Shown here: positions 1,221 through 61,733 of the stretch, piece after piece | Layout of the letters: the number at the start of each line of letters is the position of its first letter | Numbering within the stretch: the stretch's first letter is position 1 | Source of the DNA: Deltaproteobacteria bacterium | GTDB lineage: Bacteria > Desulfobacterota > Syntrophobacteria > BM002 | Reading direction: 5' to 3' | Assembly: GCA_020347625.1 (NCBI GenBank) | Contig: CP070735.1 | Span: 2,628,902 to 2,691,010 of the forward strand | DNA length: 62,109 nucleotides | The notes under the pieces: model-generated | Database searches by the model: none | Told to the model about the DNA's origin: nothing | What the model saw: the letters and a program-made list of their open reading frames with translations, nothing else | Made by a program: the position numbers and the translations under genes

Positions 1221-1354
1221 GTTGTATGTTATAAGTTATCAGTTATTAGTTGTTGGCTATCAGGTTAAGAAAATAAGGACTAGTCTTATTGTTTGTAGAG
1301 ATACAGAACAGTGGCTGTTGTTCCTCGTATAACTAATAACTAATAACGTATAAC
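1221..1354. repeat. heptamer-array hairpin element
   Basis: GTTGTAT GTTATAA GTTATCA GTTATTA GTTGTTG (1221-1267) faces CGTATAA CTAATAA CTAATAA CGTATAA (1326-1354). Confidence 0.8.
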
Positions 1355-1367
1355 CCCCCCGGGGCAA

Positions 1368-1441
1368 TGGCTGGGGGAGGAGGATTCGAACCCCCGTAGC
1401 ATGATCCAGAGTCATGCGTCCTACCACTAGACGATCCCCCA
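1368..1441 (-). tRNA. tRNA-Gln (anticodon CTG)
   Basis: Reverse complement reads TGGGGGATCGTCTAGTGGTAGGACG-CATGA-CTCTGGA-TCATG...GGTTCGAATCC...TCCCCCAGCCA. Confidence 0.9.
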
Positions 1442-1497
1442 ACGGAAAATGAAAAGTAGACTATGGTTGGCGGAAAGTCAAGGGGAAAGTCGGTATT

Positions 1498-1661
1498 CAG
1501 CGGGCAGCGGGCAGCTCGCAGCGGGCAGTAGGCAGAAAAGAGTTATACGTTATTAGTTAAACGTTATACGGGAAAAAATCGGTGATTTAGAACTTTTCGC
1601 AGGTTTAGAGACTCTTCGAGGATAGCGAATAACGTATAACATATAACTAATAACATATAAC
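1498..1661. repeat. heptamer-array hairpin element
   Basis: CAGCGGG CAGCGGG CAGCTCG CAGCGGG CAGTAGG then GTTATAC-type units. Inverted ATAACGTATAAC-type units at 1628-1661. Confidence 0.8.
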
Positions 1662-1838
1662 TTCCCCGTCACTTTGGAGAGTGCCCCATGCGCCTAAAAC
1701 ATATATAATCGCAGGTATCTGGCAGCTTGACCAAAAACCGTTTAGAAAGGCTCAAAATTTGCAAGGAGAAGGGGTCACTTATTAACGGAAAAAGTTAAGC
1801 GTTTTGCATTGGGCAAAACTTAGCTAAGGGATCATTAT

Positions 1839-1885
1839 CAGCTGCCTGCTGCCAGCTGTCAGCTGCTAGCTGTGGGCTGGCGCCC
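1839..1885. repeat. heptamer array (CAGCTGC/CTGCTGC type)
   Basis: CAGCTGC CTGCTGC CAGCTGT CAGCTGC TAGCTGT GGGCTGG. Partly complementary to the 1498 array. Confidence 0.7.
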
Positions 1886-1894
1886 ACAAAGTGC

Positions 1895-1922
1895 TTGACA
1901 AACCTAAGGCTTTTTTTATACT
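1895..1922 (+). promoter_or_regulatory. sigma-70-type promoter upstream of yceD-rpmF-fabH
   Basis: TTGACA (1895-1900), 16-nt spacer, TATACT (1917-1922), about 45 nt before the yceD start. Confidence 0.45.
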
Positions 1923-1967
1923 TACGACTTCAATCTTCAAAAGATCTCAAATAGGGGATGGTGATCT

Positions 1968-2930: not shown

Positions 2931-3914
2931 GTGAATCGCAGCGTCATCATAGGAACAGGATCAGCTGTACCCAAGAAGGTTGTCACCAACGAGGACCTGG
3001 AATCCATAGTTGACACCTCAGACGAGTGGATTCGCACACGCACCGGTATCAAACAGAGGTACATAGCTGAAGACGGTGAGACCACTTCCTCCCTGGCCAC
3101 GGTGGCGTCACTGAGGGCCCTAGAGATGGCAGGGGTGAGCCCGGAAGAGGTTGACATGATCGTGGTGGGTACCACCTCTCCCGATATGATCATGCCCAAC
3201 ACAGGCGCCTTGATACAAAAGCACCTCGGGGCAACAAAAGCTTTCGGTTTTGACGTCTATGCGGCTTGCAGCGGCTTTGTCTACGCCCTAGCGGTTGCAG
3301 ACAAATTCGTGAAGGAGAAGCCAGGCAGCAAAATACTGGCCGTCGGTGCGGAGATTCTCTCCAGCATCACAGATTGGCAGGATCGAAACACCTGTGTTCT
3401 TTTTGGTGATGCTGCAGGAGTTGTTCTGCTAGGCGGTTCGCAAGAGTCCGATCGGGGCATCCTTTCCACCCATCTGCGATCGGATGGTCGTCTTTGGGAA
3501 CTGCTGCACATTCCAGGGGGCGGATGCGTATATCCCCCCAGTGCCGAGATGGCCGAGAAGCGTGACTATTGTATACGTATGCAAGGCAATGAGGTGTTCA
3601 AACATGCTGTCCGGTCCCTCGCTGGGGTGGCCAGGGAAGCCATGGAGGAAAATCAGCTGAAGCCGGATGATATCGACCTCTTTATTCCACACCAGGCCAA
3701 CATGCGCATAATGAAGAAGGTGGCGGAAAGTTTGGAGATTCCCATTGACCGGGTTTATGTGAATATCGATCGATACGGCAACACGTCTTCAGCAAGTATT
3801 CCAGTGGCCCTTGACGAGGCCAACCGTTCTGGCCGTCTCAAGCGAGGAGACCTGGTGCTCTTGGACGCCTTTGGAGGGGGCTTCACCTGGGGAGCAGTAA
3901 TGATTCGCTGGTAG
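2931..3914 (+). CDS. fabH: 3-oxoacyl-ACP synthase III
   Basis: FabH-like over full length (AACSGF active-site Cys, HQAN, GNTSSAS). GTG start. Confidence 0.9.
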   Translation: MNRSVIIGTGSAVPKKVVTNEDLESIVDTSDEWIRTRTGIKQRYIAEDGETTSSLATVASLRALEMAGVSPEEVDMIVVGTTSPDMIMPNTGALIQKHLGATKAFGFDVYAACSGFVYALAVADKFVKEKPGSKILAVGAEILSSITDWQDRNTCVLFGDAAGVVLLGGSQESDRGILSTHLRSDGRLWELLHIPGGGCVYPPSAEMAEKRDYCIRMQGNEVFKHAVRSLAGVAREAMEENQLKPDDIDLFIPHQANMRIMKKVAESLEIPIDRVYVNIDRYGNTSSASIPVALDEANRSGRLKRGDLVLLDAFGGGFTWGAVMIRW

Positions 3915-5146: not shown

Positions 5147-5250
5147 CGTTTAGCCTGTTATGCCGGTTAAGCCGGCTAAGCCAGTTAGATGCTTTAGACT
5201 CGTCGACTTTAACTGGCTAAACCGACAAAACTGACAGAACTGGCCAAACA
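5147..5250. repeat. heptamer-array hairpin element inside the acd-etfB gap
   Basis: GCCGGTTAAGCCGGCTAAGCCAGTTAG...TAACTGGCTAAACCGACAAAACTGACAGAACTGGCC. Confidence 0.6.
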
Positions 5251-6084: not shown

Positions 6085-7271
6085 AGCCCATAGTTGACAA
6101 AGAAAAATGTACAGGTTGCGGCGACTGCGTGGAAATATGTCCCGTGGAGGCCATTGAGGTAGTGGATGAGATCGCGCAGGTGAATGATGACTGCACCCTT
6201 TGTGGTCTCTGTGTGGATGCGTGTCCCGATGAGGCTATTGATATGCCTGAGGTCATCGGCCCTGCGACAGATGACATCGAGTCGTACAAGGGAGTTTGGG
6301 TTGTGGCCGAGCACCACGGTGGCGAGGTGCATTCAGTCTCTTTTGAACTACTGGGTGCAGGCAGGAATTTGGCTGACAAGCTGGGAGTGGAGCTGGCAGC
6401 GGTAATCATCGGGGATCAGCTTCAGGAGGCTGCCGAACAGCTCATCGGCTACGGGGCCGATCGGGTTTACTTGGCGGAAGATCCAGCTCTGGCGCTCTTC
6501 AACGACGAATCTCACGCCAATGTTCTCACCGAGCTCATCGAGCAGAAGAGACCGGCGATCCTTTTGGCGGGGGCAACCGCAATGGGCCGCTCTTTTATTC
6601 CCCGGGTGGCCGTGGCAGTAGGAACTGGTCTGACGGCTGATTGTACCGAACTTGATATCGGCGAAGATGGACTCCTCTATCAAACCCGACCGGCCTTTGG
6701 TGGCAACATCATGGCCACCATCCTCTGTCCAAATCGTCGCCCGCAGATGGCAACGGTCAGGCCTATGGTAATGAGAAAGCCCGATTTCGATACTCAGCGC
6801 CAGGGAGTGGTGGAAGCTTTTGCCCCTAGCGCTAAGGCAGTTGCCTCCCGGGTGCAGGTGCTCGAGACCGTTACGCTCGCGCAGGAAACAGCTCGTTTGA
6901 CCGAGGCTGATGTGGTGGTCACGGGCGGCCGGGGATTACAAAAGGCGGAGAATTTTAAAATCATCGAAGAGGTGGCACTTCTTGTGGATGGTGCGGTTGG
7001 CGCCACCAGGAGTGTGGTGGACGAAGGGTGGATGCCTTACAGTCATCAGGTAGGTCAGACGGGCAAAACGGTTTCTCCCAAGCTTTACCTAGCTTGCGGT
7101 GTTTCTGGTGCCATCCAGCATGTTGTGGGGATGCAGGGCTCCGAGATCATTGTGGCGGTAAACAAAGATCCGGATGCGCCAATCTTCGATGTGGTCAACT
7201 ACGGTGTGGTGGCGGACCTGTTTGAATTTCTTCCTGCTTTGGTGAAGAAAATAAGAGAGCAACGAAGCTAA
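6081..7271 (+). CDS. etfA: electron transfer flavoprotein, alpha (large) subunit with N-terminal 2x[4Fe-4S] ferredoxin domain
   Basis: [12 protein letters not shown] and [12 protein letters not shown] motifs followed by an EtfA/FixB body. ATGA overlap with etfB. Confidence 0.9.
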
Positions 7272-7276
7272 TTTAT

Positions 7277-7487
7277 AAATCCGAAATTAAATTTAGGAAT
7301 TGGGGAATTAAGGAATTGAGGGATTGGACACGAATTCATTAAATTGTCTGTGCAAGCTTTTCTAATTCCTGAATCCCTTAATTCCAGAATTTCTCAATTT
7401 ATTTGGGTGTTTCGGATTTCGACCCGCCCGCCTCGCCTGAACGAGCAGGCTCGCGATGGCGGGCAGGTATTCGGATTTCGGATTTGC
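7277..7487. repeat. nested heptamer-array hairpin element (etfA-fabG gap)
   Basis: AAATCCG AAATTAA ATTTAGG AATTGGG GAATTAA GGAATTG...AATTCCT GAATCCC TTAATTC...CGGATTT. A second hairpin is CCCGCCCGCC...GGCGGGC. Confidence 0.8.
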
Positions 7488-7552
7488 TTAGAGGCGATAT
7501 TGGAAATTGTCAACTTCTCTTAATTTAATTTTTAGGCCTGCGGGGTGAAAAG

Positions 7553-8305: not shown

Positions 8306-8447
8306 GCGCCTAGCATGCTAGCCGCCCGCAGAGAGCTCGGGGCATGGGGCATAGAGGGACATGTATTTCTGTAATATACACTATGCTTCATGGTCGATGA
8401 CCAGAGAAACAACATTTTTGCCGTTCCTCAACAGGTAGGAATATACG

Positions 8448-10156: not shown

Positions 10157-10320
10157 CATTTGGCATTTGGCATTTCGCGTTTCAAATCTCAAAACTGCAA
10201 TCAAAGAATACAGTAGCCAGTAGTCAAGGGCGAATTACTCCTGTTTGCTTTTCTCCTGAATTCTGACTCCTGACTCCTCACTCTATGCCCCATGCTCCAT
10301 GCCTTCTCACATCTCAAAAA
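10157..10320. repeat. composite heptamer-array element (copy A)
   Basis: CATTTGG x2.., GTAGCCA GTAGTCA, core AGGGCGAATTACTCCTGTTTGC, CTGACTC x2, CCATGCT CCATGCC. Confidence 0.85.
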
Positions 10321-13748: not shown

Positions 13749-13783
13749 GATAGTCCGGACAGAATGGGCGAGCAAGCGCATCT

Positions 13784-13910
13784 GGCATAGGGCATAGAGC
13801 ATAGAGCATGGGGTTCAAACATTTTAAAATTTGAAATTATTGGCCCTGGCTACTGACTACTGCTTTCTATTAATTCGCGTTACGCCTTGAGCCCTGTGCC
13901 TCTAGCCTAA
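13784..13910. repeat. composite heptamer-array element (copy C)
   Basis: GGCATAG GGCATAG AGCATAG AGCATGG...TGGCTAC TGACTAC...TAATTCGC. Confidence 0.8.
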
Positions 13911-13925
13911 CAGTGGAGATGACCC

Positions 13926-14719: not shown

Positions 14720-15952
14720 ATGCCAACCGCAAAAATTGCTGAGGCCCTGGAAGAGATCAGAGAAGGGAAGATGGTTATCCTGGTGGATGATGAGGACCGG
14801 GAAAACGAGGGTGATCTCTGCATGGCTGCCGAAAAGGCGACCCCAGAGGCCATAAACTTTATGGCAAGGTATGGAAGAGGATTGATCTGTCTTTCCTTGA
14901 CAGAGGAAAAGGTTGAGAAACTTCAGCTACCCATGATGGTTTCAAACAATGAGTCTAGGTTCGGGACCGCCTTCACCGTTTCAATCGAGGCTAGACTTGG
15001 GGTCACCACCGGAATCTCTGCTGCTGATCGGGCAACCACCATTCTGACTGCGGTGGACCCCGGCGCAAGACCAGAGGATCTGGTGAGTCCGGGACATGTC
15101 TTCCCCCTTCGGGCTCGAAAGGGCGGTGTATTGGTGCGTACCGGACAGACTGAGGGTTCGGTTGATCTAGCCAGGTTGGCAGGATTGAAGCCTGCCGGAG
15201 TCATTTGCGAGGTTATGAAAGACGATGGCACCATGGCGAGAATGCCTGACTTGGAAATATTTGCCAAGGAGCACGGACTCAAGATCGTTACTATTGCAGA
15301 TATTATCGAGTACAGGATGCGCCACGAGAGCTTTGTTGACCGTGCAGCAGTCACCATGCTGCCCACCATTCATGGCGGTGAATTTCAGGCCATTGTCTAT
15401 ACAAACGACATCGATCCCAGCCAGCACATTGCCCTGGTGAAGGGTGAGCTCAACCCGGATGAAGAGATATTGGTCCGCGTCCACTCAGAATGCCTCACCG
15501 GCGACAGTTTGGGCTCGCTTCGCTGTGATTGTGGAGACCAGTTGCATCGTGCCATGGAGATGGTTAGCGATGAAGGTAAGGGGGTTATCCTTTACATAAC
15601 CAACCAGGAAGGTCGTGGCATAGGTCTCGCCAATAAACTCAAGTCGTATGCTCTCCAGGATCAAGGAAAAGATACGGTGGAGGCCAACGAGGCCTTGGGA
15701 TTCAAGGCTGATTTAAGAGAATACGGGATAGGTGCTCAAATCTTGGTGGACCTTGGGGTCAGAAAGATGCGGCTTATGACCAATAATCCCAAGAAGATCG
15801 TTGGACTGGAAGGTTACGGTATCACCATAACCGAGCGGGTGCCCATCGAGATTCAGCCCAACCCCTGTAACCTTGACTATCTGAAAACTAAATGTTCAAA
15901 GATGGGCCACCTCATGGACCTGACCCAGCAGAAGGAGAAGGAGAATTACTGA
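14720..15952 (+). CDS. ribBA: bifunctional DHBP synthase / GTP cyclohydrolase II
   Basis: RENEGDL (RibB half). CxxxxxxxxxxCxC zinc site and QEGRGIGL (RibA half). Confidence 0.93.
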
Positions 15953-16038
15953 GATTGTAGATTGCAGATTGTGGGATTATATGAATCTTCTGTCTGAACT
16001 TCATTCAATCTGAAATCAAGAATCTAAAATCTGCAATG
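15953..16038. repeat. heptamer-array hairpin element
   Basis: GATTGTA GATTGCA GATTGTG, a loop, then CAATCTG AAATCAA GAATCTA AAATCTG CAATGCA. Confidence 0.85.
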
Positions 16039-16607: not shown

Positions 16608-16775
16608 GCATCGCGTCATTTGGCTTCGCCGTCATTCATCGTCACTAAGTGGTTGGGTCACAAGGTTGTTTAGTAACTGGAGTACCCCAACATGGCATCG
16701 CTCTTTATAGTGATCTTTTCCTTTTACGACATAATGACTCAATGACGGGCGACAGCCCAAATGACCTAATGACCC
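16608..16775. repeat. heptamer-array hairpin element (ribH-nusB gap)
   Basis: CGTCATT..CGTCATTCATCGTCAC on the left. ATAATGAC TCAATGAC..AAATGAC CTAATGAC on the right. Confidence 0.7.
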
Positions 16776-16848
16776 TGCGCTTCGAGTGTTACGCCTCATA
16801 ACTAATCAGATAGGGTGCTCAAAGCCCACCACCATAGAGAACAAGAAT

Positions 16849-17500: not shown

Positions 17501-17534
17501 TTAATGCCTATTGGAGAAAAGTGCAGGAGGGATA

Positions 17535-46996: not shown

Positions 46997-47130
46997 GACA
47001 TATCTGTCTCATAATTAAACTTGAGACATCTAAAAGTGGAATTCTTTTCTTCTAGTCATTATTAGGTACAATGTTTATTGCTTAATCCCACTCATCGCTG
47101 CTGACTGATAAGTGTCTCATAGGTGTCTCA
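46987..47130. promoter_or_regulatory. upstream activator sites: six TGTCTCA/TGAGACA heptamers
   Basis: TGTCTCATGAGACA palindrome at 46987-47000 overlaps the activator stop codon. Further copies at 47005-47011, 47022-47028, 47113-47119 and 47124-47130. Confidence 0.6.
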
Positions 47131-47226
47131 CAAAACTCCGATGAGGCAATTAGTCCTTCAATAGTCATATTTATTTAACTATATAATATTACTTATTTTT
47201 ATAACTTTATCTACCAAACTGGTTTC

Positions 47227-47243
47227 TTGGCATGAATCTTGGG
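47227..47243 (+). promoter_or_regulatory. candidate sigma-54 (-24/-12) promoter
   Basis: TTGGCATGAATCTTGGG has correct GG-N10 spacing but -12 reads GG rather than GC. An AT-rich putative bend region (47161-47215) lies between the UAS and the promoter. Confidence 0.5.
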
Positions 47244-47307
47244 TTGGAGATTAAACACACATTAGAAAGAAACTCACAACAGAGACATCTACGGAGGAGA
47301 AACAATA

Positions 47308-47481
47308 ATGTCTCGAGAGCGGCTGACAACTGGTACTGAGGTGGCTCCGGGTATATACAGATGTAATGCCTGCGCCAAGCAGATTGACTGTCAAGACGAA
47401 GAGTGCAAGTTGCCCCAGTGCAGCGCTTGTGGCAGCTTTTCGTGGAGAACGACCAGGCTGCTAAGCAAAAAAGATTCCTAA
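47308..47481 (+). CDS. 57-aa zinc-ribbon mini-protein
   Basis: Not in the ORF track. ACGGAGGAG RBS. Translation MSRERLTTGTEVAPGIYRCNACAKQIDCQDEECKLPQCSACGSFSWRTTRLLSKKDS. Confidence 0.6.
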   Translation: MSRERLTTGTEVAPGIYRCNACAKQIDCQDEECKLPQCSACGSFSWRTTRLLSKKDS

Positions 47482-47498
47482 ATCGCAAGGAGGGAGAG

Positions 47499-47699
47499 AT
47501 GAGCAAGAAAAGATACGAAGTGAAAGGCAAATGCCCCAATTGTGCCTGCGGTACTATTTCTGACATGAGCGCAGAAGAGATTAAGGCCAAGACGATCGAT
47601 GGGGACAAGTTGGAGATCCATTGCCCCGAGTGCATGGAAGTACATCAGGCCAACATCAGGTCAGTCTGCCCCGAATACGCAGACGAATGCCACCTGTAG
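47499..47699 (+). CDS. 66-aa Cys-rich mini-protein
   Basis: AGGAGGGAG RBS. MSKKRYEVKGKCPNCAC...HCPECMEVH...CPEYADECHL. The ORF-track start 47403 is judged too early. Confidence 0.6.
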   Translation: MSKKRYEVKGKCPNCACGTISDMSAEEIKAKTIDGDKLEIHCPECMEVHQANIRSVCPEYADECHL

Positions 47700-47721
47700 A
47701 TCGTTTAAGGAAGGAGATAGC

Positions 47722-47931
47722 ATGGCAAAGCCGGAAGACATGTATCAGTGCCAGACGACTAATTGTGGTTGTCTCTATGATCCGGATCGTGGAGACAGAA
47801 GAAGTAAGATTCCCAAGGGGACAGATTTTGATAATTTGCCCGGGGAGTGGAAATGTCCGGTTTGTGGCGCCGGTAAGAAGATGTTTCGGCCACTCCGAGG
47901 ACCGGGTTCGGTAGTAGAGGAGGGTAGCTAA
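47722..47931 (+). CDS. type-2 rubredoxin (Rdl-like, CX4C first knuckle)
   Basis: YQCQTTNCGCLYDPDRGD...WKCPVCGAGK. AAGGAGA RBS. Confidence 0.8.
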   Translation: MAKPEDMYQCQTTNCGCLYDPDRGDRRSKIPKGTDFDNLPGEWKCPVCGAGKKMFRPLRGPGSVVEEGS

Positions 47932-47968
47932 GAGCTTTAATTAACGCTTAGCGAGAAAGTGAACCATT

Positions 47969-48172
47969 TTGAAACCTTGCAATCAGACCATAAAGAAGAC
48001 ATTGGATATGGTGGACAGCATGCTCATCCTTGCAGACGAGGGCGATGCTGTGCGTGAAGATGTTGGATGCGGCATACTTTACGCTGTGTTGCGGGATTCG
48101 GCATACAAAATAAAAAAGCTGGCCGAGGCGGAGCGCAAAGCTCACTTTGAGAAGGGCTGGTGGCAAGAGTAA
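47969..48172 (+). CDS. hypothetical small protein
   Basis: ORF in an operon context. Start is uncertain (TTG 47969 or ATG 48008). Confidence 0.4.
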   Translation: MKPCNQTIKKTLDMVDSMLILADEGDAVREDVGCGILYAVLRDSAYKIKKLAEAERKAHFEKGWWQE

Positions 48173-48189
48173 GCAGGGGAGGTGAGACA

Positions 48190-48300
48190 ATGGCAACTTT
48201 CAAATGCAATACCTGCGGTCATGAAAAAGAAGGAAGATGTAAACCCCAGAAATGCCCTGAGTGCGGCGAAAAGAAGACATTCGAAAAAAAGTCCTCATAG
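48190..48300 (+). CDS. 36-aa zinc-ribbon mini-protein
   Basis: Not in the ORF track. GGGGAGG RBS. Translation MATFKCNTCGHEKEGRCKPQKCPECGEKKTFEKKSS. Confidence 0.55.
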   Translation: MATFKCNTCGHEKEGRCKPQKCPECGEKKTFEKKSS

Positions 48301-48315
48301 CTGTGGAGAGAGCTG

Positions 48316-49146
48316 ATGCGGATGGGACCCCTTGAGCTTTACAAAAAACTGCCAAAGACTAACTGCGGCGATTGTGGTCATCCCTCTTGCCTTGCCTTCG
48401 CCACCCAGGTTGTCGGATATGGCCAAGACCTTCGAGACTGCCCTCACCTGGCAGAGGCTGCCCTCCAGGAGGTGGAGAGTATAATTGAGGAGCAAAGAAA
48501 AGAAGGTGTCTACGTCAAGCAAGATAATCACAAAATAACCCGGGATCACCTGAGAGAGAAGATTAAGAGCCACGACTTCAAATCAATCGCTCCGGGGCTG
48601 GGGGTGAGTTACTCAGAAGATAACGGCTTGGTTACTCTGAAAATTCCATATTTCGATCGCGTGGTCAGCATGAGCCATAGTGGGATCTTGGCTGAGAACA
48701 GTGAGGAGTTTGATCCCTGGGATGAAGTACTTCTCTATAATTACATCTTTTTTGCCGGTTCAAAGCCTTTGAGCGGCGATTGGGTAGGATTGGAAAATTT
48801 CCCGAATTCTTTGCCCAAGCGTGCGGCACTTGATGAGGGTTGTCACCGACGCATCAGTGAGGTCTTTTCTGGGGCCAGAACTGCACTGGAAAGTGCTTGT
48901 CAGAAGCTAGGAGGCACAAGAGTGGTAGATGGACACAGCGGTGACCTGGCCTTTCAGTTTCAACCGCTTCCCAGGATGCCACTTCGTCTGCTTTTTTGGG
49001 ACGAAGATAGGGAGGAGGGCTTCGAAGCACAGTCCAAGGTCCTTTTCAACGCAGCAGCCATAGAATATCTGGACCTCGAAGGTCTAACTTTTGTGGCCGA
49101 GAAACTGGCCAATAAATTGATTCAAATTAAGAAAGGAGGAACTTGA
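48316..49146 (+). CDS. putative Fe-S cluster domain + DUF3786-like protein
   Basis: N-terminal CGDCGHPSCLAF...DCPHL resembles the putative Fe-S domain of corrinoid Fe-S proteins. The body is DUF3786-like. Confidence 0.6.
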   Translation: MRMGPLELYKKLPKTNCGDCGHPSCLAFATQVVGYGQDLRDCPHLAEAALQEVESIIEEQRKEGVYVKQDNHKITRDHLREKIKSHDFKSIAPGLGVSYSEDNGLVTLKIPYFDRVVSMSHSGILAENSEEFDPWDEVLLYNYIFFAGSKPLSGDWVGLENFPNSLPKRAALDEGCHRRISEVFSGARTALESACQKLGGTRVVDGHSGDLAFQFQPLPRMPLRLLFWDEDREEGFEAQSKVLFNAAAIEYLDLEGLTFVAEKLANKLIQIKKGGT

Positions 49147-49640
49147 TGTCTAAGACGGAACAGAATCTGAGGGATGCTTTTGCTGGGGAGTCCCAGGCCA
49201 ACCGTAAATATCTTGCCTTTGCAGAAAAGGCTGAGAAAGAGGGGTACCCGCAGGTTGCCAAACTATTTCGAGCTGCAGGTGCGGCAGAAACTGTTCATGC
49301 CCACGCTCATTTGCGCGCCCTGGGGGAGATTGGCAGCACTGCAGAGAACCTTAATGTTGCCGTGGCCGGTGAAACCCACGAGTTTAAGAGTATGTATCCT
49401 GAAATGATCGAGGTCGCCAAGGAAGAGGGCAACAAGAAGGCAGAGAGAAGCTTTGTCTTTGCCAATGAGGTGGAGAAGGTCCACGCTGACCTTTATCAGC
49501 AAGCTCTGGACAACCTGGATAGCCTCGAAGAGGCGGACTACTACGTTTGCAGTGTATGCGGCATGACCGTTGAAAATGAACCTCCTGACACCTGCCCGGT
49601 GTGCGGTGCAAAAGCCAGCGCTTTTTTCAAGGTGGACTAA
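49146..49640 (+). CDS. rbr: rubrerythrin
   Basis: Diiron ferritin-like domain (NLRDAFAGESQANRKY, ETHE) plus a C-terminal rubredoxin knuckle CSVCG..CPVCG. The ATG overlaps the upstream TGA. Confidence 0.9.
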   Translation: MSKTEQNLRDAFAGESQANRKYLAFAEKAEKEGYPQVAKLFRAAGAAETVHAHAHLRALGEIGSTAENLNVAVAGETHEFKSMYPEMIEVAKEEGNKKAERSFVFANEVEKVHADLYQQALDNLDSLEEADYYVCSVCGMTVENEPPDTCPVCGAKASAFFKVD

Positions 49641-49706
49641 TCGTTCTACGGTTCCCAACCTACCTGGGTTCGAGGGATAATCTCGAAGGTCAGATTCGTT
49701 TCTCGA

Positions 49707-49759
49707 GCCCGGAGGTTGTAACGCTCGCCGGTACAGGGTAACGGATTCCACCTCCGGGC
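49707..49759 (+). promoter_or_regulatory. 10-bp perfect inverted repeat with 33-nt loop between rbr and the next ORF
   Basis: GCCCGGAGGT (49707-49716) pairs with ACCTCCGGGC (49750-49759). There is no U-tract and the function is unknown. Confidence 0.3.
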
Positions 49760-49780
49760 ATTGAAAATGGAGGTAACCAC

Positions 49781-50134
49781 ATGTTGACTATCGAAGAAAT
49801 AAAGGAAAACCAAGAAATTATGGACTGCCTTAACCTGGAGATGACTCCTGAGAAGGCGGTGGCTCTTTACCTGGAGTGGGGCTCATCCTGGGCCCACGGT
49901 CGGGACTTTGTCAGATCCAACACTGATGTGAGTTGCTACTTCACCATCGATGCCTGGGAGAAGCCGGCAAAGCTTCTTCTGATAAGGCGGAGCATGGCGG
50001 AAGGGGAAATCCTTGGAGAAGTGGACGCGCCGCGTGAGCTTGTGGAAAGGGAACTCGAAGCCTGGGGCGGTAGGAGAGGAAGCTACGGGATCAGTGAATT
50101 GCTGAAAGAGTGGCTTCGTTCGCAGCTCAGTTGA
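49781..50134 (+). CDS. hypothetical protein
   Basis: GGAGG RBS. No family recognised. Confidence 0.55.
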   Translation: MLTIEEIKENQEIMDCLNLEMTPEKAVALYLEWGSSWAHGRDFVRSNTDVSCYFTIDAWEKPAKLLLIRRSMAEGEILGEVDAPRELVERELEAWGGRRGSYGISELLKEWLRSQLS

Positions 50135-50196
50135 AATGATCTCTGCCCCGTGCAATATGGGATCACTGAAAATTAGTCGAGACCGTAATGACAGAA

Positions 50197-50230
50197 ATGC
50201 CAGCCCCAATGGGCTGGCATTTTTCCTTTT
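50197..50230 (+). terminator. intrinsic terminator
   Basis: ATGCCAGCCC-caat-GGGCTGGCAT followed by TTTTCCTTTTT. Confidence 0.75.
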
Positions 50231-50247
50231 TATTGAGTTGATAAACC

Positions 50248-50277
50248 TTGACGAGATTTAGTCGGAAAAACTATATT
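50248..50277 (+). promoter_or_regulatory. sigma-70-type promoter of the ferritin-like gene
   Basis: TTGACG, 18-nt spacer, TATATT. Confidence 0.4.
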
Positions 50278-50327
50278 CGAGGTAGGCTTAACATTGGTTT
50301 TACCAAACCCAGCTACGGAGGTTCGTT

Positions 50328-51185
50328 ATGGAAAAGTCGGAATTGATCGCGATGTTGAACAAGGACATCGCCGAGGAGCATGCGGCGATCATTCGCTATC
50401 TTACTCATAGCTATTTAGAGGGTGAAGATACCCCTATCGGTGCAGGTTTGCTGTCTCGCTCCAGGGAGGAAATGTGGCATATGCACTGGCTTGGCATGGT
50501 CATAGGAGACCTGGGTGGTGAGCCCAATTTGACGCCAGCCCCTTACCCCTATGACCCCACCAATCGCGAAACAATCTTCAAGTCCTATGTTGAGTATGAG
50601 CTGAAGTTGGTCCCCCACTACAAGGGAGAGGCGGACAGAGTGGATGACCCTCACATTAAGCGGGTATTAGAGCGGGAGGGCTGGGAATCCGCTATGCACG
50701 CAAAGAAATTTCAAAGGGTGTTGGACAAGCTCACTCCAGATGAAGCCGCGGGTGTTCCAGGAGAAGAGAATGAGCTGCCCAAAGAGTTCGTCGATCAACT
50801 TCAGGATCTGGTGGCAAGCAAGTACACCCAAGTGTTGCAGCACGTGCGAAATGGTTGGGTCCTCCAACGGGAAGGAATCACCGGCTGGGAACTTATGGAC
50901 TTCTCCATGACCCAGATGAAGCAACTGGCCCATATTGCCGAAGAGGTGGCTGAAAATGGAATAACGCCGCGGCTCGAGGCTGGTCAAATCGATACGAGTC
51001 GGTCCATCGGTGTGGCGCTGCAAAAAACCCTGGAGGACGTGCGTGCCTCTCGTGAACGCCACCTGAAGTTCCGTGATGACAGTGAAACGCAGAAACATGC
51101 AGGCCTCGTTGTTAACCTGGACCTCACCCTCCAGCAGGAGGAGTATGAGGCAGGCGAAATCGAGGACTGGATTAAGAAGCTATAA
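50328..51185 (+). CDS. ferritin-like (bacterioferritin-family) protein, apparently tandem-domain
   Basis: LNKDIAEEHAAIIRY and EEMWH in the first half, with a similar helical pattern in the second half. Confidence 0.65.
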   Translation: MEKSELIAMLNKDIAEEHAAIIRYLTHSYLEGEDTPIGAGLLSRSREEMWHMHWLGMVIGDLGGEPNLTPAPYPYDPTNRETIFKSYVEYELKLVPHYKGEADRVDDPHIKRVLEREGWESAMHAKKFQRVLDKLTPDEAAGVPGEENELPKEFVDQLQDLVASKYTQVLQHVRNGWVLQREGITGWELMDFSMTQMKQLAHIAEEVAENGITPRLEAGQIDTSRSIGVALQKTLEDVRASRERHLKFRDDSETQKHAGLVVNLDLTLQQEEYEAGEIEDWIKKL

Positions 51186-51199
51186 TCAAGGAGAAAATA

Positions 51200-51859
51200 A
51201 TGGCAAAGATCGGTGTGCTTCTCTCAGGATGTGGCGTATTTGACGGTGCAGAAATACATGAGGCTGTGCTAACCATGCTGGCGCTGGACCGGGCCGGCGC
51301 TACAATTGTCTGCATGGCACCAGATGTCGACCAGTACCACGTGGTCAATCACCTAACACAGGAAGAAATGACTGAAAAGCGGAACGTGCTGGTGGAATCA
51401 GCTCGCATTGCCCGTGGCGAGATAAAGGATCTCAAAGATGTCAAAGCTGCTGATTTGGATGGTCTGATCATGCCCGGTGGGTTCGGCGCGGCTAAGAACC
51501 TGAGCGACTTTGCCTTCAAGGGTGCAGAATCCACTGTCGAAGCCGAGGTAAAACGGATCCTCGAGGAAATGTCGGCGGCTAGTAAACCCATTGGTGCGAT
51601 CTGTATCTCCCCGGCTCCCTTGGCCAAAGCGCTTTCTGCCAAGAAACCCGAGGTGACCATCGGAAACGATCAATCCACTGCAGAGGCCATTGAAGCCATG
51701 GGCGGTCAGCACAAAACTTGCACGGTGGATATGATTCATGTGGACGGTGCAAACAAAGTGGTCACCACACCTGCCTACATGCTGGGGCCTGGCATCAAAG
51801 ACGTGGCAGTCGGTATTGAGAAGTTGGTGCACAAGGTGCTTGAACTTGCCGGGGGTTAG
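51200..51859 (+). CDS. elbB: ElbB-type DJ-1/PfpI family glyoxalase
   Basis: MAKIGVLLSGCGVFDGAEIHE N-terminus and GAICISP nucleophile elbow. Confidence 0.82.
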   Translation: MAKIGVLLSGCGVFDGAEIHEAVLTMLALDRAGATIVCMAPDVDQYHVVNHLTQEEMTEKRNVLVESARIARGEIKDLKDVKAADLDGLIMPGGFGAAKNLSDFAFKGAESTVEAEVKRILEEMSAASKPIGAICISPAPLAKALSAKKPEVTIGNDQSTAEAIEAMGGQHKTCTVDMIHVDGANKVVTTPAYMLGPGIKDVAVGIEKLVHKVLELAGG

Positions 51860-52084: not shown

Positions 52085-52561
52085 ATGGAAGAGGGCAGGG
52101 GCAAGAGAAGGAGTTTGCGGGTTCCGGTTCATCTTGATGTACGTTGTGACCTGGCTGACGGATCCACTATTAAAGCTAAAATCATCAACTTGGGCACGGA
52201 GGGCATTTTTGCTAAATCAGTCGATCCAATCAGCCCTGGCGATAGCATAACCCTAGAGTTCCTTTTGCCGGGCACCCTCAATTCAATCAAGCTGGCCGGA
52301 GAAGTGATGTATTCTCGCACTCAGGAGGGGGAACAAGACTCGGATGAAGATTTCCATGTGGCGGGTATTAAGTTCATCGATCTTGCAGAGCCTTATCACA
52401 CCCTGATTCGAGATTATACGCTCAAAATGCTGGACAACGAGGAGATTTTACGTGACGGGGGAATTCTCCACGTGCTCGACGACATCCGTAATCTCCCGCC
52501 TTCAGACAGGTTAAAGGCTTACCATGTCCTGATCAAGAAGGGCTCAGGGCCGGTGGGTTGA
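52085..52561 (+). CDS. PilZ domain protein (partly degenerate second motif)
   Basis: RRSLR is present. The second motif reads NLGTEG instead of D/NxSxxG. Confidence 0.65.
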   Translation: MEEGRGKRRSLRVPVHLDVRCDLADGSTIKAKIINLGTEGIFAKSVDPISPGDSITLEFLLPGTLNSIKLAGEVMYSRTQEGEQDSDEDFHVAGIKFIDLAEPYHTLIRDYTLKMLDNEEILRDGGILHVLDDIRNLPPSDRLKAYHVLIKKGSGPVG

Positions 52562-52715
52562 TTGTAGATTTAAGATTGTAAATTTAAGATTTAAGATTGG
52601 GGAATCCTTCTTTGGTGCTTTTCTTTCTGATAGCTATCTGAAGTAACCTCAGCATTAGGTTACAGGTAACAAATTACCTAAATCCGCAATCCGCAATCTG
52701 TAATCCGGAATCGAG
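52561..52715. repeat. heptamer-array hairpin element
   Basis: TGTAGAT TTAAGAT TGTAAAT TTAAGAT TTAAGAT on the left. CCTAAAT CCGCAAT CCGCAAT CTGTAAT CCGGAAT on the right. Confidence 0.8.
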
Positions 52716-55660: not shown

Positions 55661-56667
55661 AACTGCCTCCGTGTTATGCTCGAGCAATCCTTCGAATCCA
55701 GAGGAATGTTTTCCGCGCCCGAATTCGTTGCAAATAATTTAAGAATAGATTTACACTTGTCGACCCCTGGCCTACACGATTCACGAAAAGAGAAAGACAA
55801 ACTGTTTAGTAATCTCACCCGGAGATAATAGATTACTTTATGCCCTTATAATGGAATCAGGATAAATTCCCCGAGGAATCTCCCACCCCAAAAAGAATGA
55901 CGAGATTCTTCCCAGCTACGCTTGTCAGAATGACATCCTAATTCTGACATTTGCATATAAACACTAATTGGATCGAATTTATAGCCTTTAAGTAGCTATT
56001 TTATGTATCAGTGAAATGCTCGTTTTTGTATGTCAATATCGTGTTAAAAATCACTGCTGACTAAACAGTTAAATTATATCGATTAATTTGTAATTATCAT
56101 TAAATCATACTTGTTGCGTAGTTTATTGTGATGACAGGTCACCATTTGTTTATATGTCATAATTGACATAACTGTTTATTCTTGACAGTGAGATGGAATG
56201 TGCTATTTTTGTAGCCAAGATATTGCCGTAATTGGATTATTGGTTCATTTATTCACCTTATCCCTACTTCAAAGCGCCCCGAGCGCCAAGCATTCTGTGA
56301 AGCAGAGAATTCCTGAATTAGTGCGGTAACTAGATCGGACAGATGCTAAGGAAACTAATACTTTGCTTCATCGTTATTCCTTGAGTTGCCTACCTGGACT
56401 GAATTGGAGGGCAGAACGTATTCTGCTCTGGCGGCGAAGTTTGCATCCTATTCCTTTTTTTAGGTCTGATGCCTGCGTTCCTGAAACGGAATTGATAGCG
56501 AGTCAAAGGATCGACGGTTGCAACGGCAGGCGCAGGATTAAATGAACGGATAGTCAGAGGTGTTTGTCCACCTCTGACAAGGGAAAGGAGGTGTTAAGAG
56601 TCAATAACTGACACGAAGCAGAGTTGAATTGCACCGATGTTTCATGAAAGGAGGGCAAATTAGACCC

Positions 56668-59600: not shown

Positions 59601-59712
59601 CACGCCCAAGGACGGCGGTGACAGTTCAAACTTGCTCACTCCTTCCATCGGTGATCCCAATACGTTGATCCCGGAAACCAAGGCCTTTATGGTCAATGTC
59701 AGGAAGGCATAG
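56668..59712 (+). CDS. fdnG: formate dehydrogenase catalytic subunit, selenocysteine-containing, Tat-exported
   Basis: Tat motif TRRDFMK. CPYCAVGCG [4Fe-4S] motif. In-frame TGA at 57241-57243 in the context HQARI-U-HSATVAALAESFGRGAMTN. ORFs 56629..57243 and 57292..59712 share one frame. Confidence 0.9.
57244..57275 (+). promoter_or_regulatory. candidate SECIS stem-loop just 3' of the UGA
   Basis: CUGUU (57254-57258) can pair with GGCAG (57267-57271). Only hand-folded and weak. Confidence 0.3.
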
Positions 59713-59729
59713 AAGGAGGTGAGACCTGT

Positions 59730-60506
59730 ATGGCTGACAAATCGTTTTTTATAGATACCACGAAGTGTACAGCCTGCCGAGGCTGTCAGGTTGCCTGCAA
59801 GCAGTGGAACAAGTTGCCGGCTACCAAGACATCCAATTGGGGCAGCTACCAGAACCCAGCAGATCTCTCCTTCGCCACCTTCAAGCTAGTCAGATTTAGG
59901 GAGGTGGTTTCCGGGGGTAAGCTGAGATGGTACTTTTTCCCGGACCAGTGCAGGCACTGTCTCGAGCCACCGTGTAAGGACACTGCCGAAGGGTATGTGG
60001 ATGGGGCCATCCTCCAGGATGAGGCCACGGGTGCTGTCATTTATACTGACAAGACCCGCAAGCTAAGCGACTCAGCCTTTGAGGAAGTTCGAGAGTCGTG
60101 CCCTTACAATATACCTCGGCAGGATCCTGCAACTAGATTGGTGACCAAGTGCACCATGTGCTTCGACCGGGTGTCCAATGGTCTAATGCCCGCTTGCGTA
60201 AAGGCCTGTCCCACCGGTACCATGAACTTCGGCAATCGGCGTGACATGATGAAGATGGCCAAGGCGCGGCTGGCACAACTGAAGAAGGCAGGGTACCGTA
60301 AGGCCCAGCTTCTGGATGCGGACTCTATCCGGGTCATTTTCGCAGTGGTGGACGACCCCATGATTTACTACAAGTTTGCCGTTGCGCAAAACGATGTGGG
60401 TATCAATCGCAAGCTGGCCCTGCGCAAACTCCTTCGGCCTGCCACCGGTCTAGTGGCCGGCGTGGCCATGCTGGGGAGCATTGCTGACACCTCGCGATCC
60501 GAATAA
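59730..60506 (+). CDS. fdnH: formate dehydrogenase iron-sulfur subunit with C-terminal TM anchor
   Basis: CTACRGCQVACK, CRHCLEPPC and CTMC..C..ACP clusters. Hydrophobic C-terminal helix. Confidence 0.88.
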   Translation: MADKSFFIDTTKCTACRGCQVACKQWNKLPATKTSNWGSYQNPADLSFATFKLVRFREVVSGGKLRWYFFPDQCRHCLEPPCKDTAEGYVDGAILQDEATGAVIYTDKTRKLSDSAFEEVRESCPYNIPRQDPATRLVTKCTMCFDRVSNGLMPACVKACPTGTMNFGNRRDMMKMAKARLAQLKKAGYRKAQLLDADSIRVIFAVVDDPMIYYKFAVAQNDVGINRKLALRKLLRPATGLVAGVAMLGSIADTSRSE

Positions 60507-60522
60507 GATCGCACCTAATCTC

Positions 60523-60551
60523 GGGAGGGACTTCTGTCCCTCCTTTTTTTT
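60523..60551 (+). terminator. intrinsic terminator after fdnH
   Basis: GGGAGGGAC-ttct-GTCCCTCC followed by T8. Confidence 0.7.
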
Positions 60552-60597
60552 ATGCTATAAAAATGGTGACCGGCCTCAAATCAGAAAGGAAAGGCCC

Positions 60598-61485
60598 ATG
60601 ACTGCTAAGGATCTCGATGACCTCTACCAGCGCATGTCGGATCGGCTCAATCAAATAAAGCGGCAGCGCAGTGAACACGACGAAATCCTGTCGTTTTACG
60701 CCAAGGTATTAACAGCCCAACACGAAGCTCAGCAGGAAACAGTCATTCCCGAAATCGACCTGCAGGAGGATCGGTTCAAGCTAAAGATCGAGGAGGGATT
60801 TCCCCTCATCGAGCGAGAGAATTTTCCCGTAGACAGAGACGGCACTGAGCGTCTCTTTAAGAAGCTCTGCCAGATTTCTCTTGATGAAAATCCAGTGCTT
60901 GCAGCTGCCGGGAAGACCCTGCTCGAGACAATGGATTCCGGAAAGACCGAGTTTGCTCAATTGATTGGCGCAGTTCTAAAGAACGATACAGAGGTCATCG
61001 AGAGCATCGCAAAGGATCTGGAGGTTGACACACCCATTCTTCAGGCCTTGGCAAAGCTGAGCTTACAGCCTTCACTTTTGGCGACGGCCGCAGCTGTTGC
61101 TCAACGCGCTGCCCTGGATGACTGGAAGCACGAATACTGCCCCGTATGCGGGGGACTGCCGGCCATGGCAGCATTGGTGGGTGAAGAAGGCAAACGGCAG
61201 GCCCTCTGCTCATTTTGTGGCCATTTCTGGGAGCTAACCCGGATGAGCTGTCCATATTGTAACAATACCAAGCAGGAAGATCTTCGCTACTTTTACGCGG
61301 AAGGGGAGGCTCTCTATCGGGTGCACATCTGCGAAAAGTGCAAGGGTTATCTCAAAGTCATGGACACCCGCGAGGGTGGTGACCTGAAGGGTTTGGCTGT
61401 GGATGACCTTGCCACCGGTCATCTTGACTTGCTAGCCGAAGAGGAGGGTTACCAGCGTAAGGCCCCTAGGGTCCTAGGAATTTAG
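60598..61485 (+). CDS. fdhE: formate dehydrogenase accessory protein FdhE
   Basis: CPVCGG, CSFCGHFW, CPYC and CEKCKGY motif series. Internal ATG at 60598 chosen. Confidence 0.85.
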   Translation: MTAKDLDDLYQRMSDRLNQIKRQRSEHDEILSFYAKVLTAQHEAQQETVIPEIDLQEDRFKLKIEEGFPLIERENFPVDRDGTERLFKKLCQISLDENPVLAAAGKTLLETMDSGKTEFAQLIGAVLKNDTEVIESIAKDLEVDTPILQALAKLSLQPSLLATAAAVAQRAALDDWKHEYCPVCGGLPAMAALVGEEGKRQALCSFCGHFWELTRMSCPYCNNTKQEDLRYFYAEGEALYRVHICEKCKGYLKVMDTREGGDLKGLAVDDLATGHLDLLAEEEGYQRKAPRVLGI

Positions 61486-61537
61486 ATCCGTTTGGTCTAG
61501 AAAAGGCAGCTGCTGTTTCAGTTATGGCGGTTTAGCT

Positions 61538-61733
61538 GAGAGTACTACTGAGTGGCTGGAGTGTTGGAGTCTGTGAAATCCCAAACTCCAAGCACCAAAT
61601 TACAAACAAATCTCAAATTCCAATACCAAATGACCAAAACAGTTTTGGAATTTTGAATTTTGGTCATTGTGATTTGTTTGATATTTGATATTTGAGATTT
61701 GGAATTTCTATTATTTCACTAATCCGTTACTCC
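61538..61733. repeat. about 200-nt nested heptamer hairpin element (copy T, inverted relative to S)
   Basis: 61575-61640 is the exact reverse complement of 44227-44292. The other arm and the outer GGAGT/ACTCC units are also collinear with copy S. Confidence 0.9.

Follow-up and report, generated by a model that had tools for sequence, protein, structure and literature searches.

The DNA analysed here, a stretch of 62,109 nucleotides from a Deltaproteobacteria bacterium (GenBank assembly GCA_020347625.1, contig CP070735.1; hereafter the window), carries etfA and etfB, fab genes, the ribD-ribE-ribBA-ribH-nusB operon, leuS, lptE and rpsT among its genes. The corrected gene map divides these 62 kb into 50.5 kb of coding DNA and ~11 kb of spacer DNA distributed over 67 spacers. 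It is in the spacers that tandem arrays of degenerate 7-nt units, and occasionally 8- or 9-nt units, are found, assembled into the mosaic and often palindromic elements that are the subject of this report.

Tandem Repeats Finder (TRF) returned 87 rows in the window, 48 with period 7 and 12 with period 14. An independent lag-match scan yielded 37 period-7 arrays, 0–3 arrays for every other period from 4 to 12, and no period-7 array in the 50.5 kb of coding DNA; dinucleotide-shuffled spacers gave a mean of 0.07 such arrays (maximum 2). Intergenic identity at lag 7 was 0.319, against 0.257 ± 0.004 after shuffling (z=15.4), with harmonics at lag 14 (z=12.4) and lag 21 (z=9.1), and the autocorrelation of coding DNA contained the 3-nt codon periodicity only. 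Three period-8 arrays (7290-7399, 20132-20195 and 44299-44347) and two period-9 arrays (5148-5242) of like style bring the total to 42, with 2–9 units per array, and all 42 are non-coding. An earlier note, made from the letters of the window alone, had described tandem degenerate heptamers as pervasive and strictly intergenic, and these figures bear out both that description and the 7-nt periodicity beyond a shuffled background on which it depended. All of the example loci named there are recovered by TRF (CAGCGGG at 1498, GGCATAG at 13784, AGATTGT at 15952, the 8-mer CACGGAGA at 20132, TAGTCCG at 20859, TAACTAA x4.7 at 39368 and ACTAGGC at 45040), as are about a dozen unit families in both orientations. 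The strictly scored arrays amount to 1.24 kb of the ~11 kb of spacer DNA; when arms, loops and cores are included, the ~27 loci delineated here occupy ~3.5 kb, in agreement with the earlier delineation by hand.

Forty of the 42 arrays sit within 20 of the 67 spacers, and the remaining two lie past the last called gene, at 61.6 kb. As had been proposed, the elements occur in every gene-orientation context, occupying 12 of the 49 co-directional, four of the nine convergent and four of the nine divergent spacers, and neither the 5′ nor the 3′ ends of genes are favoured among the 67. Tight operons are included: four occupied spacers belong to the ribD-ribE-ribBA-ribH-nusB operon, and others lie among the fab genes, between leuS and lptE, and in the gap between tRNA-Gln and tRNA-Glu. 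The elements seem to take up the interval between a stop codon and the ribosome-binding site that follows. A sparse stretch that had been pointed out holds up, with a single array (32168) between 27.5 and 37.5 kb. At gathering thresholds, Rfam detected only five tRNAs in the window and no family over the elements. CRISPR organisation is excluded, because the units are 7–9 nt long and contiguous, without spacers, rather than repeats of 24–48 nt with unique spacers. A Pfam scan of the ~60 window proteins found no transposase, Y1_Tnp or REP-associated tyrosine transposase (RAYT; REP, repetitive extragenic palindromic), integration host factor (IHF), HU or Csp protein, so that no open reading frame (ORF), transposase or CRISPR organisation in the window accounts for the arrays.

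The leucyl-tRNA synthetase encoded at 17511-20126 is 83–85% identical to those of four uncultured metagenome-assembled genomes (MAGs) labelled 'Deltaproteobacteria', Syntrophobacterales or Desulfobacterales (L001-L004), and 60–65% identical to those of many other Desulfobacterota. Gene order in the window from 7.5 to 28 kb is common to L001-L004, giving synteny over 20 kb, and genes for EtfAB with an Fe-S domain, rubrerythrin, rubredoxin, Ni superoxide dismutase and sigma-54 activators are in keeping with an anaerobe. A cyanobacterial origin, suggested by the likeness of the arrays to cyanobacterial heptamer repeats, is rejected by these relatives and by the synteny.

The arrays lengthen and shorten by slipped-strand events in whole-unit steps. 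The window was compared with conspecific contigs 99.2–99.9% identical to it, from NCBI assembly GCA_975970745.1 (strain L090) and several Logan assemblies, and unit copy number proved to differ among these related strains in steps of 7 or 14 nt: four indels were found at four positions, all of them inside arrays. Three distinguish L090 from the window over 9.4 kb, in which there are also 50 substitutions, namely CAATCCA at 25562 and CGCATAG at 23673 (7 nt each) and TGCCCTATGCCCCA at 23606 (14 nt). The fourth, of 14 nt (ACGGACC ACTGACC) at 20887, occurs in two other samples. The L090 indels number three in 234 array nt and none in 9244 other nt (Fisher p=1.5e-5), whereas substitution density is alike in arrays (0.49%), other spacer DNA (0.65%) and coding DNA (0.50%). 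The arrays are therefore hot spots of whole-unit slippage and not of mutation in general; hypermutability of the arrays at the level of single-nucleotide substitutions is rejected on the same figures. Two of the indels affect one hairpin at 23.6 kb, whose left arm (23576-23606) is two units shorter and whose right arm (23651-23673) is one unit shorter in L090. Conspecific short-read contigs also start or stop in or beside arrays, at 10283 (L081/L082), 13846-13894 (L086-L089), 20882 (L097), 23004 (L091) and 25645 (L090), and most of those bearing these genes are shorter than 5 kb; the heptamer elements break up de Bruijn assemblies of this lineage.

Adjacent units within an array differ by one or two bases. 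At 25546-25700 an unbroken 7-nt register passes successively through GGATTGY, GCAGAGC, GCATAGC, GCATGGG, GCATGGA, GTAAGGA, GTGAGGA and GTCAGAA, and another morphing register lies at 27392-27462. Such gradual change is the pattern expected of local unit duplication combined with point mutation. Because the units shift gradually along a register, the 'families' are regions of a continuum.

Composite mosaics, including their non-repeat cores and loops, have moreover been copied into further spacers, in direct or inverted orientation. The segment 10211-10283 recurs at 25657-25729 with 93% identity over 73 nt (86% over 92 nt when extended), including the core AAGGGCGAATTACTC.TGTTTGCT, and 44150-44310 recurs at 61557-61710 with 88% identity over 161 nt, of which a 68-nt stretch is identical. 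In addition, 23636-23690 and 25558-25612 are 87% identical over 55 nt, and a GCATRGG array followed by the loop start AAATTCARAATCCTTC is common to 23581-23622 and 32166-32206 (93%). Slippage in situ cannot make one non-repeat core twice, and whole mosaics must therefore be copied. The identical 68 nt of the 44-kb and 61-kb copies belong to one arm; in the other arm, three consecutive AAATNNC units differ at both variable positions between 44150-44185 (AA, CA, CC) and 61675-61710 (CT, AT, AT), which would fit gain and loss of units rather than point mutation.

Comparison with the syntenic relatives indicates that the same spacers stay occupied over species-level divergence while the units within them turn over. 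The rpiB-glyA, ribD-ribE, ribBA-ribH, leuS-lptE and lptE-rpsT spacers are occupied in the window and in L001-L004, and spacers that are free of arrays tend to be empty in all syntenic relatives. Between ribBA and ribH, the window, L001 and L003 carry GATTGYR arms and their complements with 3, 5 and 4 left units, respectively; L004 has a hairpin of the 8-mer GGAGTRWT / AWYACTCC instead, and L005 has a 23-nt spacer without any element. The ribD-ribE spacer holds an 8-mer hairpin in L001, L003 and L004 and GCATAGR arrays in the window. A 400-nt cluster at 25.5 kb corresponds to a spacer of 33–39 nt in L002 and L003, which itself consists of three AGTGCCT units, and the insertion between ribH and nusB in the window relative to L001 is bounded by TGACCT...TGACCT. 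The GGAGTRWT / AWYACTCC 8-mer was observed to be the commonest family in the relatives (L002 15481-15580; L003 6300-6385; L004 6008-6104 and 8370-8400; L001 1180-1251). In the window it is restricted to the outer arms of the 44.1-kb element, so that the abundance of a family shifts between species. Of 80 Desulfobacterota loci, those in the clade of the window and a scattered minority outside it have period-7 arrays at high density, and most have none.

Many of the loci are inverted pairs able to fold into hairpins, some of them nested. When the best reverse-complement 21-mer within 250 nt of each array was compared with reverse-only and complement-only controls, identity averaged 0.73 for the inverted partners and 0.61 for the controls (Wilcoxon p~1e-6), and 11 of the 42 arrays had a partner with at least 0.80 identity. 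Array-bearing spacers (n=19) had a mean minimum free energy (MFE) z of -2.8, against -0.95 for array-free spacers (n=30). The strongest fold, at 41463-41808 (z -9.5), is a nested hairpin of two unit families; further strong folds lie at 44869-45146 (z -5.4), 44096-44352 (z -5.0, nested), 7272-7552 (z -4.8) and 39204-39431 (z -3.9). The earlier note had held that the left arm is usually the reverse complement of the right arm. The excess of inverted partners and the better complementarity of the arms stand, but 'usually' does not: an inverted partner, ~20–150 nt away, accompanies about half of the arrays, and the rest are direct-only mosaics, among them the largest cluster (25546-25945). Direct-only mosaics at 10157-10303, 13778-13925 and 25546-25945 have MFE z of at least -0.8, without excess structure. 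Folding of both strands, as the note had suggested, gave no strand signal for RNA: if the hairpins were selected as RNA, G:U-compatible mismatches should favour the transcribed strand and make it the stabler one, and it was so in only six of 11 loci of known polarity, a small sample. The asymmetry in fold stability instead follows the G-rich + strand.

The hairpins differ from intrinsic terminators, in which a short GC-rich stem precedes a T run at the 3′ end of a transcription unit: they are 20–40 bp long, AT-rich or mixed, without T tracts, and equally present in divergent spacers. A textbook intrinsic terminator with a 10-bp GC-rich stem and T8 does occur at 32124-32165, directly upstream of a GGGCATA array, and the fold of 32105-32215 (z -8.7) is owed mostly to this canonical GCGGGAAGGA-loop-TCCTTTCCGC-T8 structure beside the array. 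Ordinary terminators thus coexist with the heptamer elements and differ from them.

Along the window, the loci begin with a tRNA-Glu/tRNA-Gln hairpin at 1213-1354 (GTTATNN arm 1213-1256, NNATAAC arm 1326-1354; TRF, partner identity 0.90, fold). This hairpin of 140 nt fills the spacer 1204-1367 between tRNA-Gln(CTG) and tRNA-Glu(CTC), and because the two tRNAs are on the same strand it would lie within a tRNA precursor. It is followed by a direct CAGCGGG array of 4–5 units at 1498-1535 (TRF, scan), by a hairpin of GTTATAC... / ...ATAACAT at 1541-1662 whose family is common to 1213-1354 and 39225-39400 (TRF, fold, partner 0.90), and by an array of the self-complementary unit CAGCTGC at 1839-1872 (TRF, scan). 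The two period-9 arrays at 5148-5242 (GTTAAGCCG and AACTGACAA; TRF) lie between an acyl-CoA dehydrogenase gene and etfB. The etfA-fabG spacer holds the period-8 hairpin AATTGAGG... / ...CCTNAATT at 7290-7399 (z -4.8, partner 0.86) and a small TTCGGAT array at 7470-7485, and the fabG-fabF spacer a short GGGGCAT remnant at 8330-8359. The direct-only mosaic at 10157-10303 combines a CATTTGG array, CAGTAGY units, a non-repeat core, an MTYCTGA array and an ATGCCCC array; within it, TTTCTCCTGAATTCTGACTCCTGA (10250-10273) is identical to the class 3 site Gmet_I304A of Geobacter metallireducens (Aklujkar et al., 2009; PMC2700814).

In the rib operon, a mosaic with a weak fold occupies the ribD-ribE spacer (13778-13925; GCATAGR array with CTACTGA and GCCYTGW units). 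The ribBA-ribH hairpin (15952-16032; three GATTGYR units and a YRGATT-complement arm; TRF, fold, partner 0.85) begins at the stop codon, and the degenerate element between ribH and nusB (16610-16790) has a left arm of CGTCATT type, a right arm of AATGAC type and a loop of ~95 nt, with a whole-spacer z of only -0.7 to -1.0. Downstream of leuS lies a period-8 pair (20132-20308) consisting of an (S)ACGGAGA array (20132-20195), which is the reverse complement of TCTCCGTS, the class 2 consensus of G. metallireducens, and an arm containing GTCTCCGT (20273-20308). The convergent lptE-rpsT spacer (20859-21075) holds a TAGTCCG/TGGTCAG array (20859-20889), the one that is 14 nt shorter in two samples, and a partner of GGACCACGGA type near 21050-21075. 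A CAGATTG array at 22973-23011 has its inverted partner CAATCTG at 23679-23697, across a PilZ gene, and the element at 23576-23699 comprises a hairpin of GCATRGG / CGCTATG arrays and then a CAATCTG array (TRF, fold). The window encodes four small single-domain PilZ proteins in 62 kb (22000-22308, 23075-23593, 42292-42648 and 52085-52561), two of them directly flanked by arrays; the gene at 23075 is the one between the inverted CAGATTG / CAATCTG arrays, which are 700 nt apart.

The 400-nt cluster at 25546-25945 is specific to this species and in direct orientation, with no predicted hairpin (MFE z +0.7 to +1.3); after the morphing register it continues with a core and then CTACTGR, GGATTGC, CAGCYGC and TACTGYC arrays. 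Beyond it are AAATGMGA units, CCGCGTCA 8-mers and a CCTAGTG array (26399-26513; TRF, self-comparison), a self-folding array that morphs from ATTTYGG through ATGTGRG to AATGMGA (27391-27464; TRF, fold), and, directly after the intrinsic terminator, a GGGCATA array with a short CCCTATGC partner (32166-32215). Hairpins follow at 37509-37615 (GTGCGAT-type units, z -2.35) and 39225-39421 (GTTATWM x9 / TAACTAA x4.7, with TGCCTAG x2; z -3.9, partner 0.90). The nested hairpin at 41514-41685 (z -9.45) has outer GGCGCAA / GCCTTGY arms and inner class-3-like AGGAGCTAGAATTCAGGAG / TTCTCCTGAATTCTGG arms. An AATCCGC array at 42912-42952 adjoins tRNA-Leu. The nested element at 44126-44347 (z -5.0) has outer arms of the 8-mer GGAGTRAT / ATTCCAGT type and inner AAATNNC / GNNATTT arms, and a hairpin with ACTAGGC / GTGCTTA arms lies at 45040-45122 (z -5.4). 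At 52560-52714 a GATTKWA array and an AATCCGC array stand on either side of a loop of ~80 nt (TRF, fold), and at 61539-61733 the 44.1-kb element returns in inverted orientation (88% identity over 161 nt, a 68-nt stretch being identical), accompanied by TTTTGAA and TTTGATA arrays.

Among the neighbouring features, a cluster at 45147-51859 encodes proteins of oxidative stress (Ni superoxide dismutase, a sigma-54 activator, rubredoxin, a DUF3786/Fe-S protein, rubrerythrin, a ferritin-like protein and DJ-1/PfpI), and hairpin elements lie at its upstream edge. A 21-nt-period repeat of 2.2 copies at 31133-31179 is in frame within a gene for a transporter of the major facilitator superfamily and is unrelated to the intergenic arrays. 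Between a gene for a PreP-like M16 peptidase and the next gene, 941 nt (55688-56628) contain no ORF of at least 90 aa, no heptamer array and no Rfam match.

Related arrays are also present in phage-like contigs. Sixty-four stretches of IMG/VR contigs contain an exact (GGATTGC)n 20-mer, the chance expectation for a given 20-mer being below one by the authors' own estimate, and these stretches contain 259 period-7 arrays in 627 kb, against 9–86 for other periods. Most of them are high in GC, but L103, L115 and L127 have a GC content of about 0.48, and these three carry GATTGCG / CGCAATC inverted pairs between ORFs with PHROG matches to head-tail adaptor and virion proteins (in L115 at 132-224, 3199-3287 and 6901-7032). 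The class 3 21-mer is found in two viral contigs, and another IMG/VR contig, L138 (GC 0.61), contains several other heptamer families. As far as sequence matches can tell, this shows that the elements can reside in mobile genomes, and phage-like contigs are a possible vehicle for their spread between hosts or lineages.

On balance, these loci are probably best read as hypervariable 7-nt (also 8- and 9-nt) arrays in mosaic, often palindromic intergenic elements that are mainly tolerated, self-propagating DNA. Slipped-strand events expand and contract the arrays by whole units, and whole mosaics with their cores and loops are copied to further spacers in either orientation; the elements would persist mainly as tolerated DNA that propagates itself in permissive spacers. 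Where inverted arms are co-transcribed, they would form imperfect stem-loops of 20–40 bp. From what is known of REP hairpins, stems of this length are long enough to be RNase III substrates or barriers to 3′-exonucleases, so that effects on mRNA are likely; an influence on mRNA processing or stability would probably be an incidental side effect and not that of a designed regulon. Several observations weigh against this account. Slippage and copying do not explain the preference for 7 nt, and no mobilising enzyme was found within the 62-kb window, a partner protein elsewhere in the genome being possible. That Geobacter has an identical 24-mer points to conservation of a recognition sequence. 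The account fits most poorly at two hairpins: at ribBA-ribH, occupancy and hairpin are kept despite the family swap in L004, which could mean selection for structure, and at 23.6 kb the shortening of both arms in L090 hints, from a single case, at coordinated change.

Selection for structure is the core of a reading in which the elements are RNA-level regulators, that is, long stem-loops in polycistronic transcripts acting as RNase III/E processing sites, 3′-end protectors, translational couplers or insulators, as has been proposed for REP sequences and bacterial interspersed mosaic elements (BIMEs). At many loci the hairpins are indeed far stabler than their shuffles (z -9.5, -5.4, -5.0, -4.8 and -3.9), they span exactly the stop codon to ribosome-binding site interval in the rib operon and also occur between two tRNAs, and four relatives keep a hairpin at ribBA-ribH, also after replacement of the unit family. 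With loops of 20–100 nt, a cruciform would not readily extrude from duplex DNA, so that any structure would form in RNA or single-stranded DNA. However, the stabler strand is the transcribed one in six of 11 loci only and follows the G-rich + strand, about half of the arrays lack an inverted partner, arm length differs between strains, the element is absent from the ribBA-ribH spacer of L005, the spacer that corresponds to the 25.5-kb cluster measures 33–39 nt in L002/L003, divergent spacers are equally occupied, and the canonical terminator at 32124-32165 stands apart; regulation at the RNA level as the reason for the elements is accordingly considered unlikely. Somewhat less probable still is that they are non-autonomous elements of the REPIN (paired REP hairpin) or miniature inverted-repeat transposable element (MITE) type, in which the inverted pairs are termini or hairpins moved by a trans-acting RAYT (IS200/IS605-like) or other transposase whose gene lies elsewhere in the genome. 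Such elements would account for inverted arms with family-specific loops, for dispersed copies of 86–93% identity in both orientations, for presence or absence at orthologous spacers and for the possible 6-bp duplication TGACCT at the ribH-nusB insertion, a single case relative to L001. The arms, however, vary in unit number and sequence and are not fixed termini, many loci are solo or direct-only, target-site duplications and sharp ends are not consistent, and no transposase or Y1_Tnp gene was found by Pfam in the 62 kb. REPIN systems usually have one to three RAYTs, and a dozen families would need many. On the other side, insertion sequence (IS) elements are associated with class 1 sites in Geobacter (PMC2700814).

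The units have a constant core of 4–5 nt with 2–3 variable positions and periods of 7–9, as in protein-site arrays, and identical sequence is common to distant genera. It has thus to be asked whether they are DNA-level sites for a nucleoid-associated or global regulator such as IHF/HU, or are read as single-stranded 7-nt units by a protein such as Csp or S1. A dozen unrelated cores in 62 kb would need many proteins or none with sequence specificity, families swap at one spacer, copy number drifts between strains, and units of 7 nt do not keep phase with the turns of the DNA helix. These ideas come from the literature (IHF/HU, PMC2700814; Csp/S1, MacGregor, 2015, PMC4679880; Nostoc heptamers, bioRxiv 10.1101/2022.06.06.494920), binding is reported in none of the cited papers, and no adjacent IHF, HU or Csp gene was found in the window, so that protein sites seem improbable, the least likely of the readings weighed here. 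Hardly less doubtful is a single cross-phylum system, in place of products of independent slippage, with dedicated machinery in the form of an enzyme that mobilises the elements and may be carried by phages, or of a protein reading single-stranded 7-nt units. It would be common to Desulfobacterota, Geobacter and their phages, and perhaps to cyanobacteria and Beggiatoaceae; if true, it would explain the Geobacter 24-mer, the constant period of 7–9 nt over a dozen cores and the shortening of both arms.

The value of these elements lies in the comparative and population handles that they offer and not in a new category, striking as their density is. Tandem heptamers have been known since 1990, from the short tandemly repeated repetitive (STRR) sequences of cyanobacteria. 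What is gained here is direct evidence of unit-step length change between conspecific strains, evidence of composite mosaics being copied from one locus to another and occurring also in Geobacter and phage-like contigs, and a syntenic genome set in which the same spacers carry different families. This is a tractable comparative system for the question of selfish DNA as opposed to RNA- or DNA-level regulators. In practice, the arrays fragment short-read assemblies and inflate intergenic DNA in otherwise tight operons.

The STRR heptamers of heterocystous cyanobacteria, reportedly described by Mazel and colleagues in 1990, comprise STRR1 (CCCCAGT), STRR2 (TTGGTCA) and STRR3 (CAACAGT). They resemble the present arrays in being tandem heptanucleotides of several families per genome, intergenic and in many copies; they differ in that the host here belongs to the Desulfobacterota and in that inverted pairing is not a defining feature of STRRs. 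No window array consensus equals STRR1-3 in any rotation or strand, and TTTTGAA is the only window unit that matches a cyanobacterial heptamer exactly (GGGGAYT and GACYAAT were also compared). Likeness to published heptamers with one mismatch (TAACTGA, TTGGTCA, GGGGATT) was discounted as within chance, since about a quarter of random 7-mers match one of 13 references within one mismatch when all rotations and strands are allowed. In the REP/BIME sequences of enterobacteria and in REPINs, the module is a single imperfect palindrome of 20–40 nt, and modules are assembled in alternating orientation into mosaics that number hundreds per genome. REP/BIME sequences occur between co-transcribed genes and are thought to affect mRNA stability, and their families are few and tied to RAYT genes. 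Intergenic, hairpin-forming mosaics of short modules in alternating orientation are thus common to REP/BIME, the REPINs of Pseudomonas and the elements of the window, but here the modules are tandem arrays of non-palindromic 7-mers, and the unit-step length polymorphism is not a property of REP sequences. STRR and REP/BIME, which the earlier note had named as the closest analogues, are reasonable choices.

That note had not recognised the elements as a described class, and on this point it does not hold. Direct repeats of TAACTGA have been described from Beggiatoaceae, cyanobacteria and Bacteroidetes (MacGregor, 2015; PMC4679880), and in Xanthomonas some of the GGGAATC repeats form inverted pairs, and the repeats differ from one close relative to another (Rehm et al., 2015; PMC4692102). 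Both are intergenic, with 2–6 or more units, differ in length between relatives, often coincide with contig ends and form mixed heptamer assemblages in some genomes. These genomes are, however, dominated by one unit, and most TAACTGA repeats immediately precede a start codon and point the same way, whereas the window has many families, often in inverted pairs and at no preferred position; its TAACTAA is one base from TAACTGA, which is not significant alone. Heptameric simple sequence repeats occur in excess in the genomes of many prokaryotes (Mrazek et al., 2007, as cited in PMC4692102). As summarised there, this survey shares with the present results a period-7 excess in intergenic DNA, for which polymerase slippage was proposed, and it is statistical in kind, without mosaics, inverted pairs or composite dispersal in that summary. 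In Nostoc, heptamers affect reporter expression, a binding partner not having been identified (bioRxiv 10.1101/2022.06.06.494920). In the literature on Desulfobacter and Deltaproteobacteria, nothing on heptamer repeats was found beyond the Geobacter genome papers.

It is these Geobacter papers that bear most directly on the window. In G. metallireducens, paired tandem 7–9-mer sites on opposite strands were catalogued as putative binding sites of global regulators in three classes: class 1, GTTGCTYN; class 2, three repeats of TCTCCGTS[Y] (21 pairs); and class 3, five heptamers MTYCTGA (8 pairs) (Aklujkar et al., 2009; PMC2700814). These sites lie in intergenic DNA, one example being the gap that separates proB from proA, do not occur in G. 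sulfurreducens, and include solo sites such as I308B; binding of IHF/HU was a speculative assignment by the authors (PMC2700814). In G. bemidjiensis, direct repeats of 6–42 nt with non-random co-occurrence occupy intergenic regions (PMC2996986). The window has the 24-nt class 3 site exactly, with diverged copies at 25667 and 41614, and two class 2 matches (20133 and 20181) in a comparison at the level of the consensus; class 1 arrays were not found in it. A match to a catalogued family is thus obtained, though not to one of known function. The Geobacter sites have 3–5 tandem units of 7–9 nt, are mostly opposite-strand pairs ~75–115 bp apart, lie between genes including those of operons (proBA), comprise several families per genome and are absent from a sister species; the elements described here have 2–9 units with periods of 7–9, and about half are paired at ~20–150 nt. 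They differ in host order (Geobacterales, as against a Desulfobacterales/Syntrophobacterales-like MAG lineage here) and in that the window has more families (~12 in 62 kb), most of them without a counterpart among the Geobacter classes checked, a higher local density, long morphing arrays, and nested and direct-only mosaics. Evidence of slippage and dispersal is given here and not in the Geobacter paper (PMC2700814). The exact class 3 24-mer together with the paired architecture indicates that this architecture and at least one family are common to the window and Geobacter. The best explanation of these likenesses is that the elements would belong to the same class as the class 1-3 paired sites of G. 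metallireducens, as repeat DNA of an STRR-like and REP/BIME-like kind, and they are best filed with the Geobacter paired tandem-repeat sites, with STRR and REP/BIME as analogous systems.

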